DNA from: an uncultured archaeon
GTDB lineage: Archaea; Asgardarchaeota; Lokiarchaeia; Sigyniarchaeales; SOKP01
DNA: 15,588 nucleotides
Assembly: GCA_964583985.1 (NCBI GenBank)
Contig: CAZOYD010000075.1
Span: forward strand, 1 to 15,588
Direction of reading: 5' to 3'
Both the position numbers and the translations under genes were made by a program. This document shows, in pieces, positions 7,288 through 12,524 of this stretch (positions are counted from its first letter, which is position 1; every line of letters begins with the position of its first letter). The notes beneath the pieces were generated by a model. That model saw nothing but the letters and a program-made list of their open reading frames with translations, was not told the origin of the DNA and did not search any database.

Positions 7288-7389
7288 TCACCATTTGTCT
7301 CCTTATTCGATAAACTTCTAATCCAAAATCTAATATTTTATATAGATTTAACCATAATTTTAAGTAAAAAAAAAATGTGAATTGAGAAA

Positions 7390-8199
7390 ATGATACTACA
7401 AAATTTTTTTGATGTTATCATATCTTGGTTTTTTGCTAATATCTTAAAAATCATATTATCGGCTGCTGCAATTGTTATTGGGTGGATAATCTATATTCTT
7501 ATTAAAAAACAATTAAATAAAATGACAGAAAAGAATAAATTAGATGTTTCTACTGCCAAAACAATTAAAAGAATTCTTAAAATAATAATTGGATTGATAA
7601 TAATAAGTGCAATATTATATCAATTTATCGAATCGCTTGGTGTAATTACGTCCCTATTTACACTTATGGGAAGCACTATAATTGGATTTGCGTCTATAAA
7701 TACGCTTGGTAATATCATCGCGGGATTTATCATCATGGCAAGTCGCCCTTTTAACGTGGATGATTACATTTTGTTTAATAATCGGATTTCTAAAGTTGAA
7801 GAGATTAAACTCATTTTTACCCAATTAGTTGATCTTGATGGTGTAAAGATATCTGTACCAAATCAGAAATTCCTATCTGAAGAAACAGAAGATCTAGGAA
7901 AAAAAGGTGTGATAAGAAGGAATATCATAATAACAGCAGATTATGGAGAAGATCGGCTTAAAGTTGAAACTGCTCTATTAGAAGCTGCTAAAGTTGTCCC
8001 TTCCATATTGGAAGACCCTAAACCTTTTGTATGGATAAGCGGATTTTTAAATTTTGCTGTAGAATATAAGCTTTTTGTATTTATAAGAAACATTGCGAAA
8101 GTGAGGGTGATAGAGGCCGATTTACGAGCTAGCATATTAGATACTGCGAGAAAATATAAGATTGAAATTAGCACACCAACAATGGTAAAAAATGTTTGA
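7390..8199 (+). CDS. mscS: Small-conductance mechanosensitive channel family protein
   Basis: Three N-terminal TM segments, then IIGFASINTLGNIIAGFIIMASRPFNVDDYI, ISVPN and a C-terminal domain with DPKPFVWI. Confidence 0.9.
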   Translation: MILQNFFDVIISWFFANILKIILSAAAIVIGWIIYILIKKQLNKMTEKNKLDVSTAKTIKRILKIIIGLIIISAILYQFIESLGVITSLFTLMGSTIIGFASINTLGNIIAGFIIMASRPFNVDDYILFNNRISKVEEIKLIFTQLVDLDGVKISVPNQKFLSEETEDLGKKGVIRRNIIITADYGEDRLKVETALLEAAKVVPSILEDPKPFVWISGFLNFAVEYKLFVFIRNIAKVRVIEADLRASILDTARKYKIEISTPTMVKNV

Positions 8200-8244
8200 A
8201 TAAAGTAATAGCTATTTCAATTCTTTCCTGTAGGGTGGTAGAAA

Positions 8245-9303
8245 ATCACAAGAGTAATTAAAAAAAAGAAATTTAAAGTTGGAGAACCTCCTGGAACACC
8301 AATATATACTGGTGATGTCAAGGAAGGAGAATTTAAGGTAGAAATAATTGATTATAGTGAAGAAAGTTATGAAATAAGGGAAGGAATAGAAAATACTGGA
8401 GATTTGGATGATATACCTAAAGGAATGATAAGATGGATAAAGTTTACCGGATTGACAGATTCATCAGTTTTAGAAAAAGTTAGTGAAGATTTGCATCCTC
8501 TCGTGATGGAAGACATATTAAATCCCTTTCAGCGTCCTAAATTCGAAGATTATGGTGAATATATTTATATCATATTAAAAAAAATGGATTTTGACCAATC
8601 TTCAGATGGAATTAATTTCGAGCAAATTAGCCTTATTTTGGGAGATCATTTTGTTATGTCATTTGAAGAACAAAAATCTGAACTTTTTGACACAATTATA
8701 GAGAGGATTAAGGTACCAAAGGGACGTATCAGGTTTATGGGACCTGATTATTTAATGTATGCTTTAATAGATGTCGTAGTAGATTATTATTTTATTGTAT
8801 TAGAAACATTTGGTGTGTCTATTGAAGAGATTGAAGAAGTTTTAATATATGACCCAGAACCAGAAGTTCTTCAAAGAATTTATGATTTAAAACGGAAAAC
8901 GATTAATATTAGGAAATCAATTTGGCCCATGAGAGAAGTTATTAACAAGCTGCAGAGAGAGCATTCAAAATTAATATCTGATGGTTTACAATATTATTTA
9001 AGAGATATCTATGACCATGTATTTAGAATCACTGATCTATTGGAAAATTATCGCGATATCATCTTTGGCATGTTGGACATGTATTTATCAAGCGTTAGCA
9101 ATAGAATGAATGATATTATGAAAGTTTTGACAATTATTTCGACTGTTTTCATCCCATTATCATTTTTAACTGGATTTTATGGGATGAACTTTCATTACAT
9201 GCCTGAGTTAGCCATTCCAATTGCATATCCCATTTTAATACTTGTAATGATAACGATATTTAGTGTGATGATATTTTTTTTTAGAAGGAAAAAATGGATT
9301 TAA
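8245..9303 (+). CDS. corA: Magnesium/cobalt transporter CorA (start extended upstream of the ORF-track TTG 8404)
   Basis: Motifs HPLVMEDILNPFQRPK, YLRDIYDH, MNDIMKVLT and FYGMNFHYMPEL, with two C-terminal TMs and KKWI. The typical N-terminus KVGEPPGTPIYTG is in frame at 8275-8313. Exact start is uncertain; ATC 8245 is proposed. Confidence 0.92.
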   Translation: MTRVIKKKKFKVGEPPGTPIYTGDVKEGEFKVEIIDYSEESYEIREGIENTGDLDDIPKGMIRWIKFTGLTDSSVLEKVSEDLHPLVMEDILNPFQRPKFEDYGEYIYIILKKMDFDQSSDGINFEQISLILGDHFVMSFEEQKSELFDTIIERIKVPKGRIRFMGPDYLMYALIDVVVDYYFIVLETFGVSIEEIEEVLIYDPEPEVLQRIYDLKRKTINIRKSIWPMREVINKLQREHSKLISDGLQYYLRDIYDHVFRITDLLENYRDIIFGMLDMYLSSVSNRMNDIMKVLTIISTVFIPLSFLTGFYGMNFHYMPELAIPIAYPILILVMITIFSVMIFFFRRKKWI

Positions 9304-9380
9304 AGGAATCATTTTTGATTTAAGAAACGCATTTAAAATATTGGAATTTATCGAAATTATAGAAAAAAAGAGCATGGGTC

Positions 9381-10025
9381 ATGGCAAGCAATATTTCACT
9401 GACATATATAAATGTTTTCGTTTCCTCGGCCGTTTTATTATTCATAATTTGGGATCATTTAAAGGACGATCGTCAATTGACAAGACAAATTCAAAATTTT
9501 TATAATGATCTTGAGATGCTGATTTATAGTTATATCCAAATTAAGTATTATAACACGATTGAAAAAAAACATATCGACGATAGTGATCTTAAAACTCTCA
9601 ATAGGACAAAAAATAGAGATATCATTCAAAATTCTTATTTAAAAAAAAAAATTAAACAAAATTTTCATGAATATAGTAATTATCTTGGTCTGACTTTTGA
9701 TGAGGAGACAAATTCCTATTTAAACAATACGATTTATGTTTTAGGTATTGACGGTCTTTTGAAAAAAAGAAATTTTGAAAATAATACTGTTGACGAAATA
9801 ATTAATTCCTATATAGATATAACTAGTGAAGAATTAGAAGATATCCTGAAATTTTTACGTAGCACGAGATTTTTTTGGAATAAGAATTTTAAAAAATTTA
9901 TATTTCGTACTCATCTCAAACCTCAGTTAAATTTTAGTGAAGTATTAGGTAGCTCAATTCCTTTGGAGCAAACGCGAAAACGATCAAAATTTCTATTACT
10001 AAAGAAACCCACTTTGGTATCTTAA
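9381..10025 (+). CDS. Hypothetical protein with a single N-terminal TM helix
   Basis: 214-codon ORF in AT-rich DNA. Hydrophobic INVFVSSAVLLFIIW followed by a soluble N/K/I/Y-rich domain; no family recognised. Confidence 0.7.
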   Translation: MASNISLTYINVFVSSAVLLFIIWDHLKDDRQLTRQIQNFYNDLEMLIYSYIQIKYYNTIEKKHIDDSDLKTLNRTKNRDIIQNSYLKKKIKQNFHEYSNYLGLTFDEETNSYLNNTIYVLGIDGLLKKRNFENNTVDEIINSYIDITSEELEDILKFLRSTRFFWNKNFKKFIFRTHLKPQLNFSEVLGSSIPLEQTRKRSKFLLLKKPTLVS

Positions 10026-10156
10026 AGTTAGTCTTCAGGATTATATATCAAAAGAATTATCAACTCGCGGTTTGATATGCTAGGAATTGAATCTAAGGCA
10101 ATAAAAAAGGGAATAGGGTCGATCTTTCGTTTAAATATTAAGATATGATGATTTTA

Positions 10157-10813
10157 TTAGCTACTTATTTGTGGCCGAATTTTTTCTCTGCGAGACAATA
10201 TCTCTGAGAGTGCTTTTTTCATATCTGAAATTTTAAGATCAACTCTATTTACATCAATTGTTCTTTCATTTACTTTTTCCTTTATCATATCCAGTTTTTC
10301 TTCTTGTTTTTTAATATCTTCTATGATTCTTTTTACGTTTTCTGCAGATGCATCTTTTTGTGTTAAATTGACATATTTATACTGTATTTTAGAAAGCTTT
10401 CCTCTTTCTTTAGCAAGAATCAGCTTTTCTTCTGCCAATTTAATTTTAGCGGCAGCAATTTCTCTTTCAAGTTTAGCTATTTTCAAATGATTTTCTGCAA
10501 TTTCAATATGAATCTCTGCTACCTTTTCGACATAATTAGCGCGGTCTAATTCTATTTTTAAACCACTTTCAGATAGTTTTAATATTTCTTTTACTTCTTG
10601 TTTATCTTTTATGTATTGCCGTGTTTTCTCTGACAAGATTTCTTTAGCTTTTGTTAAATCAAGTTCTTTTTTCGCTAAATTTTCCATCGCTTTTGCCTTT
10701 TCTAGCTCGTTTTTTGCGACTTTTTTTAATTCTAACCCGATTATTTTCTCATGGGATCCAATATTGAAATTAGACTGTGCCGCGTTCTCAATATTAAGAG
10801 TATCTTCCATCAA
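10157..10813 (-). CDS. Hypothetical long coiled-coil protein
   Basis: Nearly continuous heptads (IAENHLK IAKLERE IAAAKIK LAEEKLI LAKERGK LSKIQYK). SD AGGTGA immediately upstream; ATG 10810 is the likelier start. Confidence 0.8.
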   Translation of the reverse strand: MMEDTLNIENAAQSNFNIGSHEKIIGLELKKVAKNELEKAKAMENLAKKELDLTKAKEILSEKTRQYIKDKQEVKEILKLSESGLKIELDRANYVEKVAEIHIEIAENHLKIAKLEREIAAAKIKLAEEKLILAKERGKLSKIQYKYVNLTQKDASAENVKRIIEDIKKQEEKLDMIKEKVNERTIDVNRVDLKISDMKKALSEILSRREKIRPQISS

Positions 10814-10878
10814 ATCACCTTTTATTTTGAAATAAAATAATAATTTTAAATTATATTGAAATACAAATAAAGATATTA

Positions 10879-10896
10879 GGGAAAATTATTTTTAAA
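10879..10896 (+). promoter_or_regulatory. Candidate archaeal BRE/TATA promoter for the micro-ORF
   Basis: Purine-rich GGGAAAA (10879-10885), then TTTTTAAA (10889-10896), about 35 nt before ATG 10931. The AT-rich background makes this weak. Confidence 0.3.
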
Positions 10897-10930
10897 TTTT
10901 TATCGAATTATTCTAAATCAATCTATTATC

Positions 10931-11095
10931 ATGAATGTTTACAAGAAGATGAAAAAAAAGAAAAAAATCCAATCTGATGTATATGGAGATGAAGTTGAAA
11001 TTGAAGAAGAAAAAGATGATTTAGATGAAATAATTGGAGAAAATAGTGAATCTGAAGAATTAAATGAAGAAGATAGAGAAGAATTATATCGCTAG
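10931..11095 (+). CDS. Unannotated 54-aa micro-protein with basic N-terminus, acidic tail and C-terminal LYR
   Basis: Manual translation: MNVYKKMKKKKKIQSDVYGDEVEIEEEKDDLDEIIGENSESEELNEEDREELYR*. Strong GAA/GAT codon periodicity, tandem stops TAG TAA and a T8 tract at 11107-11114. Alternative start at ATG 10949. Confidence 0.7.
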   Translation: MNVYKKMKKKKKIQSDVYGDEVEIEEEKDDLDEIIGENSESEELNEEDREELYR

Positions 11096-11372
11096 TAATG
11101 CAAATATTTTTTTTAGAAATCTTTCATATCTTTCAGTAGTAAGATCTCATACTTAGTTAAATGCATTGAAGATGTAATTATTAAAACGGATAATATCCAA
11201 TTATTAGCTAGAAGATTAACTTTTACAAACCTTGCTATAATTATTAAAGAGTATCATAGCTATATCAGTATTATTTTGCTGTAAAATTTAACATTTTATT
11301 AGAGATTACTACTATAAATTTTTTTTAGGATGATAGATGTATAAAGATATTAATTATGGAGTTAATAAAATT

Positions 11373-12524
11373 ATGGATTTTGCATTAACAGAAAAGCAGA
11401 AAATGATAAGAAAGATTACCCGTGAGTTTGCGGAGGAATACATAGCACCTGTTGCTGAAGAGAGTGATCGCATCTCAGAATTAAATCCTAAGATAATGGA
11501 AAAAATGAAGGAGATGAATTATTTTGGCACTTGCATACCTGAAGAATACGGTGGTGCGGGATTACATGAAGATACAATTGCATTTGCAATATGCACTGAG
11601 GAGATTGGTCGTGTTGATGCTTCATGGTCAATAACTACAGGGGTGCACTGTAGTGTATGTACATATCCGATTTATCGATTTGGTGATGATGAGCAAAAAG
11701 AAAAATTTCTAAAACCACTAGCTAAGGGCGATAAAATCGGTGCATTTTGTTTAACAGAAGCAAATGCAGGTTCAGATGCTGGAGGCGTGCAATTGACCGC
11801 AGAAAAGGATGGAGATGAGTATGTTCTTAACGGAAGTAAAATATTTGCCACTAATGGTGGGATAGCAAATACATTATTAGTTGTGGCTAAATCAGGAGAA
11901 ACAAACTCACGAAAACAATTGACTGTATTTATCGTTAATACAGATACTCCAGGATATAGTGTAGGTGTAAAAGAAGATAAATTAGGTGTTCGAGCGTCAA
12001 ATACATCAGAATTAGTATTCCAAGATGTTAGAGTGCCTGAAGAAAACATTTTAGGAGGTTTAGGTAATGGTTTTAGACTTGGTTTACAAATTTTAGATTA
12101 TGGACGGATTACTATTGCTGCTCAATGCTTAGGTCTTGCACAAGGTTGTTTAGAAGCATCTGTTAAATATTCAAATGAAAGAGAACAATTTGGAACTAAA
12201 ATTGGTAAATTTCAAGGAATTCAATGGAAAATCGCGGATATGGCTACAGATGTAGAATCTGCTCGCTTATTGACGTATAAAGCAGCATGGATGTGTGATC
12301 AAAAGATGGATTACGGATTAGCGGGATCAATGGCTAAGCTAGTTGCTTCAGAAGCTGCGATGAAAGCTGCTCATCAAGCAGTTCAGATACATGGTGGTTA
12401 TGGTCTAATGAAAGCTTATGCTGTTGAAAGGTACTTTAGGGATGCTAAGATGGGAGAAATATATGAAGGTACTTCTGAAATTCAAAGAATGGTGATTGCA
12501 AACCATATGTTAAAAGGAAGATAA
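11373..12524 (+). CDS. Acyl-CoA dehydrogenase (short-chain/butyryl-CoA dehydrogenase-like)
   Basis: Motifs IPEEYGGAG, AFCLTEANAGSDA, LNGSKIFATNG, REQFG, QIHGGYG and IYEGTSEIQ (catalytic Glu). Start MDFALT at 11373 is preferred over 11337 because it is the family-typical N-terminus and has GGAG upstream. Confidence 0.95.
   Translation: MDFALTEKQKMIRKITREFAEEYIAPVAEESDRISELNPKIMEKMKEMNYFGTCIPEEYGGAGLHEDTIAFAICTEEIGRVDASWSITTGVHCSVCTYPIYRFGDDEQKEKFLKPLAKGDKIGAFCLTEANAGSDAGGVQLTAEKDGDEYVLNGSKIFATNGGIANTLLVVAKSGETNSRKQLTVFIVNTDTPGYSVGVKEDKLGVRASNTSELVFQDVRVPEENILGGLGNGFRLGLQILDYGRITIAAQCLGLAQGCLEASVKYSNEREQFGTKIGKFQGIQWKIADMATDVESARLLTYKAAWMCDQKMDYGLAGSMAKLVASEAAMKAAHQAVQIHGGYGLMKAYAVERYFRDAKMGEIYEGTSEIQRMVIANHMLKGR

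Follow-up and report, generated by a model that had tools for sequence, protein, structure and literature searches.

A two-motif micro-protein family of Promethearchaeia with a Cdc48-like C-terminus, a candidate ligand of the proteasome alpha ring

The micro-gene in its spacer

The window, i.e. the whole analysed stretch of 15,588 nucleotides from an uncultured Asgard archaeon, contains a spacer of 523 bp between a minus-strand gene for a 218-aa protein (10157-10813) and an acyl-CoA dehydrogenase gene (11337-12524). In this spacer lies an open frame of 54 codons (10931-11095, plus strand), which is closed by a TAG stop (11093-11095) and followed directly by an in-frame TAA (11096-11098). Its translation carries a K-K-M-K-K-K-K-K block and has the C-terminus E-E-L-Y-R, the last three codons being TTA TAT CGC (11084-11092). 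The product is acidic, with a pI of 4.3: aspartate and glutamate make up 20 of the last 39 residues, and lysine and arginine number 10 in all. The upstream block (10860-10930, plus strand) contains an A/T-rich, TATA-like box, TTTTTAAATTTTTATC, at ~10889-10904, that is 27-42 nt 5' of the micro-gene ATG, and is near-identical in contig L071 of the closest relative. Downstream, 12 nt 3' of the stop, a run of eight T (11107-11114, plus strand) is a possible archaeal terminator signal and is partially retained in L071. No other frame of at least 40 aa was seen to overlap 10931-11095. The frame had been described in an earlier note with its lysine block, the 20 acidic residues among the last 39, the L-Y-R end, the TAG-TAA pair, the T8 run and the A/T box, all of which we find as described.

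Taken on its own, such a frame is unremarkable and weak evidence for a gene. Open stretches of 54 codons are expected at ~0.8% in DNA of such composition, this genome holds 4,972 frames of 40-80 aa that begin with ATG, and [LIV]-Y-x is the ending of about 1% of all its frames (1.0-1.7%). The micro-frame rises above chance because it is conserved in other genomes.

Conservation, distribution and gene neighbourhood

A search with the single protein in its own genome and 40 relatives gave weak matches only, though these led to two homologous frames in a same-genus genome (G018), 56 and 57 aa long, which share the layout and end in D-E-I-Y-R. A profile from the first homologues then recovered full-length members in two more genera of the same family, and homologous frames (52-61 aa) are spread over three genera of a single Promethearchaeia family and also turn up in metagenomes. 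Profile searches returned 11 clusters from 1.84 billion representative proteins, with no length limit, and 27 proteins from a collection of 5.8 billion; the DNA pattern of the N-terminal motif described below hit no more than 5 loci in 185,579 species genomes, each of which carries the label Promethearchaeota or Promethearchaeia, which makes the source of the window a Loki-type Asgard archaeon, in line with the Asgard origin assumed in the earlier note. Altogether 29 distinct relatives were found, every one of them from Promethearchaeia (Loki-type Asgard) genomes or metagenomes, and several carry the label "hypothetical protein" in NCBI MAG records. Other searches yielded little: a word-indexed search with the single protein found near-identical copies only, in relatives the spacer DNA had no matches beyond the beginning of the dehydrogenase gene and low-complexity sequence, and a contig pattern search produced 44 matches, none confirmed by tblastn, probably owing to the shortness and low complexity of the query. 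Neither Pfam nor NCBIfam holds a family that matches the micro-protein at E 0.1 or better. Rfam assigned no RNA family to the locus, where it gave only a sub-threshold C/D-box match (18 bits against a gathering score of 50).

The substitutions among close relatives point to selection on a protein. From Nei-Gojobori counts, dN/dS is 0.18, 0.18, 0.13 and 0.56 for four close pairs, and the three unsaturated close pairs pooled give a pN of 0.10 against a pS of 0.33 (dN/dS ~0.31; Fisher p = 1.8e-6). Length differences among homologues are all in frame, even within slippage-prone A-runs. In a comparison with contig L071, conservation covers the frame and the 70 nt that precede its ATG but is lost in the DNA after the stop, and in other genera ribosome-binding sites of GGAGG/GGTG type are located 7-12 nt before the ATG. 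The earlier suggestion of a standalone gene is thereby strengthened, both by the conserved promoter block and by the purifying selection.

It could still be argued that the frame opened by chance in an A/T-rich spacer and is without expression, given that short frames are abundant in this genome, that the DNA of the frame went undetected in most same-genus genomes, and that one relative (L004) has the permease operon beside the dehydrogenase with nothing between. However, this reading, which we regard as hardly credible, is already contradicted by the conservation data: the sequences of 29 distinct homologues keep the frame across saturated synonymous divergence at a dN/dS of ~0.3, and start, stop and promoter are conserved. 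Judged by these comparisons of sequence, 10931-11095 is a genuine gene and belongs to an Asgard micro-protein family that is new and narrow in its distribution.

The family is patchy. Only 9 of the 399 genomes in the phylum carry it, and these belong to a single family; 3 of the 9 carriers, all from the genus of the window, have remnants only, in which the N-terminal part is kept. Any role of the micro-protein must be dispensable because of this patchiness and the decayed copies. The remnants (L022, G019:C56; L028, G011:C115; L026, G143:C111) comprise the lysine block and the N-terminal motif, or part of the motif, after which unrelated residues lead to an early stop. The copies in G018 (L011 = G018:C75 and L020 = G018:C228) represent one three-gene locus on two short contigs; their distance of dS ~0.45 suggests two strains or species binned together and not a true duplication.

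Proteasome, PAN, Cdc48 and ubiquitin-system genes are absent from all micro-gene neighbourhoods examined. The only recurrent neighbour within the genus is the divergent gene for the 218-aa all-helical protein (10157-10813, minus strand), whose pairing with the micro-gene recurs in L071, L074, L077 and G011, and in G018 with one extra gene between. A structure model of the 218-aa protein consists of three long helices (pLDDT 93), for which eukaryotic BAR domains (Lsp1/Pil1, SNX1, SNX9, I-BAR) are the closest folds, with TM ~0.5 and E ~1e-3. A BAR-like Asgard protein is only a lead, as any long three-helix bundle may match BAR domains. Pfam and NCBIfam searches with the neighbours of 218, 192, 330 and 385 aa gave nothing useful. 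Elsewhere the surroundings change: in another genus the micro-gene lies ~65 bp upstream of a CitMHS/ArsB-type permease gene on the same strand, in two genomes; in a third genus it comes after Hsp20 and a DUF6897 gene, and in a metagenomic clade it is found near a Ras-family GTPase. Membrane proteins (CitMHS-type permease, MscS, CorA, DUF308) are frequent neighbours.

In the same-genus genome L004 (G023:C31), a CitMHS-type permease gene and a 207-aa gene are placed directly upstream of the acyl-CoA dehydrogenase gene. This arrangement implies that a block at ~7300-11330 of the window, with MscS, CorA, a 214-aa gene, the 218-aa gene and the micro-gene, is variable, i.e. was inserted here or deleted there. 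In G018 and G019 a gene of 192-198 aa on the strand of the micro-gene immediately precedes it, with a gap or overlap of 11 nt (L011:1034-1612 and L020:1038-1634, both minus strand); its N-terminus shows some likeness, weak and below threshold (E 0.0035), to aCcr1, a ribbon-helix-helix regulator of the cell cycle, and the window has no such gene. A link to mobile elements was considered and appears unlikely, because no integrase or transposase was seen in any locus and a loose synteny with the permease operon extends over three genera.

The varied surroundings also bear on the idea that the frame is a cis-acting leader peptide, whose A-rich poly-lysine run stalls or slips the ribosome and so regulates the dehydrogenase gene here and the permease gene in another genus. 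The lysine block is indeed encoded by A-runs of 8 and 7 bases, and the frame precedes the same-strand permease gene closely in the two genomes mentioned. Yet the downstream gene differs in every clade and is convergent in several, the T8 run and 240 bp separate the micro-gene from the dehydrogenase gene, and a conserved C-terminal tail and a linker under purifying selection would not be expected of such a leader. We regard a leader peptide as very unlikely.

Architecture of the family

In the alignment of the family, two short conserved modules flank a drifting acidic linker. The N-terminal module begins with the lysine block (residues 5-12; 10943-10966, plus strand), which is encoded by A-rich runs, varies in length by in-frame indels only and has 6-10 lysines or arginines in every member. 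It continues with the N-motif, I-Q-S-D-V-Y-G-D-E-V in the window (10967-10996, plus strand) and [IV]-x-[SA]-[DE]-[VIA]-Y-G-[DE]-E-F as a consensus, of which Y18, G19 and E21 are invariant in 27 aligned sequences. A six-frame translation of this genome contains the N-motif once only. The linker (residues 23-43; 10997-11059, plus strand) is D/E/N-rich and poorly conserved, with indels, and drifts across the family in sequence and in length (20-30 residues). The C-terminal module, L-N-E-E-D-R-E-E-L-Y-R in the window (11060-11092, plus strand), has a conserved leucine or isoleucine at position -11, then acidic residues and the terminal L-Y-R, of which the tyrosine is invariant among aligned members.

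The sequence [LIV]-Y-x stands immediately 5' of the stop in 27 of 29 distinct proteins. The ends of 26 of the 27 aligned members are I-Y-D (8), L-Y-Q (5), L-Y-R (3), I-Y-R (2), L-Y-T (2) and L-Y-G (2), together with one each of I-Y-C, I-Y-K, V-Y-S and L-Y-S, and the hydrophobic residue is written with different codons in different members (TTA, ATC, ATA, GTA). Such a combination of a varied last residue, a fixed tyrosine and a drifting linker is the pattern expected if the tyrosine and a correctly spaced free carboxylate are read and the last side chain is not. It is also what the earlier note had proposed to look for among homologues, i.e. a kept penultimate tyrosine next to an acidic tract that drifts.

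Modelled alone with AlphaFold2 and the family alignment, the micro-protein adopts no stable fold (pTM 0.20, mean pLDDT 63) apart from a short predicted helix at residues 46-53 (pLDDT ~76); it is predicted to be intrinsically disordered and net-acidic. These properties (a net charge of about -10, pI 4.3, predicted disorder) would suit a prothymosin-like charge chaperone or mimic, in which the acidic tract binds histones or ribosomal proteins or imitates nucleic acid and the motifs are incidental. But the acidic tract is the least conserved part, and selection acts on the two motifs and on the exact position of the stop; moreover, the N-terminal lysine block would partly neutralise the tract, and the protein matches no known DNA-mimic or histone-chaperone family. 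We therefore consider a charge mimic improbable, and the related proposal that the acidic tract captures basic clients found no support. For a second binding site, the conserved N-terminal motif, which the earlier note had not picked out, is a likelier candidate than the acidic tract, as far as the alignment can tell.

Several variants depart from the common layout. In P0149, which is present on 4 contigs from different samples, a CAG-to-TAG change drops the last residue and leaves the tyrosine terminal (read in L075:5001-5183 against L070:1822-2007, both plus strand). P0006, of 61 aa and complete as a gene on its contig, has the lysine block and the N-motif in tandem duplicate and is without the [LIV]-Y-x tail, which suggests that the N-motif may be an independent binding module. 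A metagenomic variant of 142 aa from a single contig (L072:1142-1570, plus strand) has a two-helix membrane segment in place of the lysine block; from Y-G-D-E-F onward the micro-protein is fused to it in frame, and it ends in I-Y-D. This variant hints that the lysine block may act as a membrane-proximal anchor.

Another frame of this genome, of 60 aa (G000:C26:14699-14881, minus strand), combines a basic K/R/I-rich N-terminus with an acidic, Trp-containing C-terminal half and ends in N-Y-D-T; it is unrelated in sequence.

Candidate partners of the tail and comparison with known systems

The ending of the micro-protein resembles the hydrophobic-Tyr-x (HbYX) tails with which proteasomal ATPases contact the 20S alpha ring. 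The three PAN-like genes of this genome end in L-Y-S, L-F-M and I-Y-T, and its four Cdc48-like genes in M-Y-R, L-F-V, F-Y-K and L-Y-R (contigs G000:C1, C5, C16, C53 and C101, the two alpha subunits being included); one PAN tail (L-F-M) and one Cdc48 tail (L-F-V) thus have phenylalanine in place of tyrosine. Cdc48 tails in five other carrier genomes read S-E-E-L-Y-R, [AVS]-E-D-L-Y-R, E-N-L-Y-G and E-T-I-Y-G, to be compared with micro-protein tails such as E-E-L-Y-R, D-E-I-Y-R and Q-L-Y-G. The micro-protein tail is nearer to Cdc48 than to PAN tails, and the close match makes the micro-protein resemble a free-standing Cdc48 tail. The PAN of Methanocaldococcus jannaschii has arginine as its last residue, as does the protein of the window (PMC10349142) and as the earlier note had it.

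The last position departs most from the ATPase pattern. Aspartate (8) or glutamine (5) occupies it in 13 of 27 aligned members, the others having R, K, T, S, G or C, and no acidic last residue was found among the PAN or Cdc48 proteins of two genomes with I-Y-D micro-protein tails. The compounds Z-Tyr-Asp, Z-Tyr-Glu and Z-Tyr-Gln do not activate the mammalian 20S (PMC10349142), and a relaxed form of the motif is present in 63 of 1,484 Thermoplasma proteins (PMC3493965). HbYX-type endings are common, and most of them are not proteasome ligands. A lone HbYX tail also binds weakly, as it is without avidity. Other motif classes were compared by inspection, and the conserved positions do not fit MIM1-type Vps4-binding, PDZ-, TPR(EEVD)-, AIM/LIR- or SIM-type motifs.

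On the side of the ring, HbYX contacts are known in some detail: Lys66 binds the carboxylate, and the carbonyl of Gly19, close to the turn at Pro17, binds the tyrosine hydroxyl; the tyrosine ring is flanked by K33 and L81, and the hydrophobic residue goes into a pocket that the adjacent subunit provides (PMC10349142). This genome has two alpha subunits. The equivalents of Pro17, Gly19, Lys66 and Leu81 (Thermoplasma numbering), i.e. P18, G20, K67 and L82, do not vary among the 22 alpha subunits aligned, which include the two paralogues of this genome, and K33 of the pocket is replaced by R34 in the alignment. Seven-residue tail peptides of PAN, Cdc48 and AMA stimulate the archaeal 20S (PMC3493965), and a tyrosine dipeptide mimetic alone opens its gate (PMC10349142). 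Since isolated HbYX peptides open gates, a single disordered chain would be sufficient in principle.

Modelling with the cognate alpha subunit, a check put forward in the earlier note, was carried out with three alpha copies (22-row alignment) and residues 25-54 of the micro-protein (13-row alignment). The runs reached ipSAE values of 0.40, 0.46 and 0.49 (median 0.46), and all three controls scored 0.00; partner pLDDT was at least 51 and contact agreement between runs at least 70%. In the calibration of this procedure, 58 of 80 solved complexes attained the mark, as did 2 of 110 mismatched pairs; at 0.60 or lower, however, there were just 7 of the 80 solved complexes plus both mismatched pairs that passed, and a pass in this range is therefore wrong more often than it is right, except where docking had been a likely guess to begin with. 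The score of 0.46 may furthermore reflect a memory of solved HbYX-alpha structures. Set against the silent controls, the outcome counts as weak support for alpha-ring docking.

As the best single mechanism we propose that a Cdc48-like tail docks in alpha-ring pockets and the N-motif holds a second partner, to which we give a probability of roughly 0.4. The free tail, [DE]-[DE/Q]-[LIV]-Y-x-COOH, would insert between adjacent 20S alpha subunits in the manner of PAN and Cdc48 tails, with its carboxylate on K67 (K66 in Thermoplasma), the tyrosine hydroxyl on the backbone of Gly20 and the leucine or isoleucine in the neighbouring subunit. Because the micro-protein is a single chain and has no ATPase, it would be an ATP-independent gate modulator or a competitor of PAN and Cdc48 for the ring. 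The N-terminal module (lysine block and S-D-V-Y-G-D-E-F) would hold the second partner and make the micro-protein a bivalent adaptor. The 20S binding itself, whether it would activate or inhibit, and the existence of a second partner are our inferences here. The HbYX assignment made in the earlier note stands in so far as 27 of 29 tails have the motif, the tails are like those of Cdc48 and the pocket is intact; it is weakened by the 13 D/Q endings and by the two variants without the motif.

Alternatively, the micro-protein may be real and both [LIV]-Y-x-COOH and the N-motif may be read by partners other than the 20S proteasome, for instance a Cdc48-type tail reader, the divergently encoded BAR-like helical protein, or a membrane complex with the lysine block on anionic lipids. 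We consider this a serious possibility, and a non-proteasomal partner nearly as likely as alpha-ring docking. It would agree with a tail that is nearest to Cdc48 and not to PAN, with the acceptance of D or Q at the last position and the existence of the terminal-Tyr variant, with the recurrence within the genus of the 218-aa helical neighbour and its BAR-resembling model, with the two-helix membrane anchor that takes the place of the lysine block in one variant, and with the membrane proteins that often adjoin the micro-gene. In eukaryotes, PUB and PUL domains read the tail of p97. On the other hand, no PUB domain was found in this genome (control genomes being equally silent), the 218-aa neighbour is absent from other clades, and we know of no archaeal reader of such tails besides the alpha ring.

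Returning to alpha-ring docking, a more specific version of this reading would make the micro-protein the first single-chain, ATP-independent micro-protein ligand of the archaeal 20S alpha ring, in which a disordered mimic of the Cdc48 tail acts at the gate as a competitor of PAN and Cdc48 or as a complement to them and is tethered through the N-motif to a second partner. We hold this version to be rather doubtful as a whole. Were it correct, a 54-residue Cdc48-tailed peptide would be a simple, synthesisable probe of gate control and of competition with PAN and Cdc48, and the second motif would point to a further partner. Even if the proteasome link fails, what is left is a micro-protein family under selection and without annotation, whose hallmarks are two short linear motifs; one of these can be read only at a free C-terminus, a situation that is rare for prokaryotes.

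Proteasome regulators of archaea beyond AAA ATPases and PbaA/PbaB are almost unknown (PMC9540759). PAN and archaeal Cdc48/VAT share with the micro-protein the hydrophobic-Tyr-x-COOH tail after acidic residues. In contrast to them, the micro-protein has no AAA module and forms no hexamer, hence has no avidity; it possesses a second, unrelated motif and often ends in D or Q. Pbp11 (Q9UZY3) of Thermococcales is a small lineage-restricted protein with a disordered basic N-terminus that binds tRNA and is associated with the PAN-proteasome (PMC9540759). It differs in its folded core and reported interaction with PAN, and the accessible part of its description mentions no HbYX tail (PMC9540759).

PbaA/PbaB of the archaeal PAC2 family and yeast Pba1-Pba2 likewise work independently of ATP and bring an HbYX tail to the alpha ring (PMC3493965, PMC9540759). 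They are, however, folded oligomers of ~250 residues that belong to a Pfam family, whereas the micro-protein is predicted to be disordered and is without a family, matching the PAC2/PbaA-PbaB profile (PF09754) not at E 0.1 or better.

Among eukaryotic regulators, PI31/Fub1 acts without ATP through a disordered region that ends in an HbYX-type motif. Unlike the micro-protein, PI31 contains a folded FP domain, and its Pro-rich tail reaches into the chamber; it has no lysine block or acidic linker, and the two are not related in sequence. DSS1/Sem1 and Pup are tiny, acidic and disordered partners of proteasome systems, of which DSS1 binds lid subunits via acidic-Trp patches and Pup ends in G-G-Q/E and binds the coiled coil of Mpa. 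The micro-protein contains no tryptophan and has no Pfam match to DSS1/Sem1 (PF05160) or to Pup at E 0.1 or better, and in place of the di-glycine of a Pup, SAMP or ubiquitin-like signature the family ends in [LIV]-Y-x. No known lineage is more closely related to eukaryotes than the Asgard archaea. If docking on the alpha ring is true, the family would represent a minimal adaptor or regulator in the lineage nearest to eukaryotes, with a role analogous to that of PI31 or DSS1 and a sequence unrelated to either.
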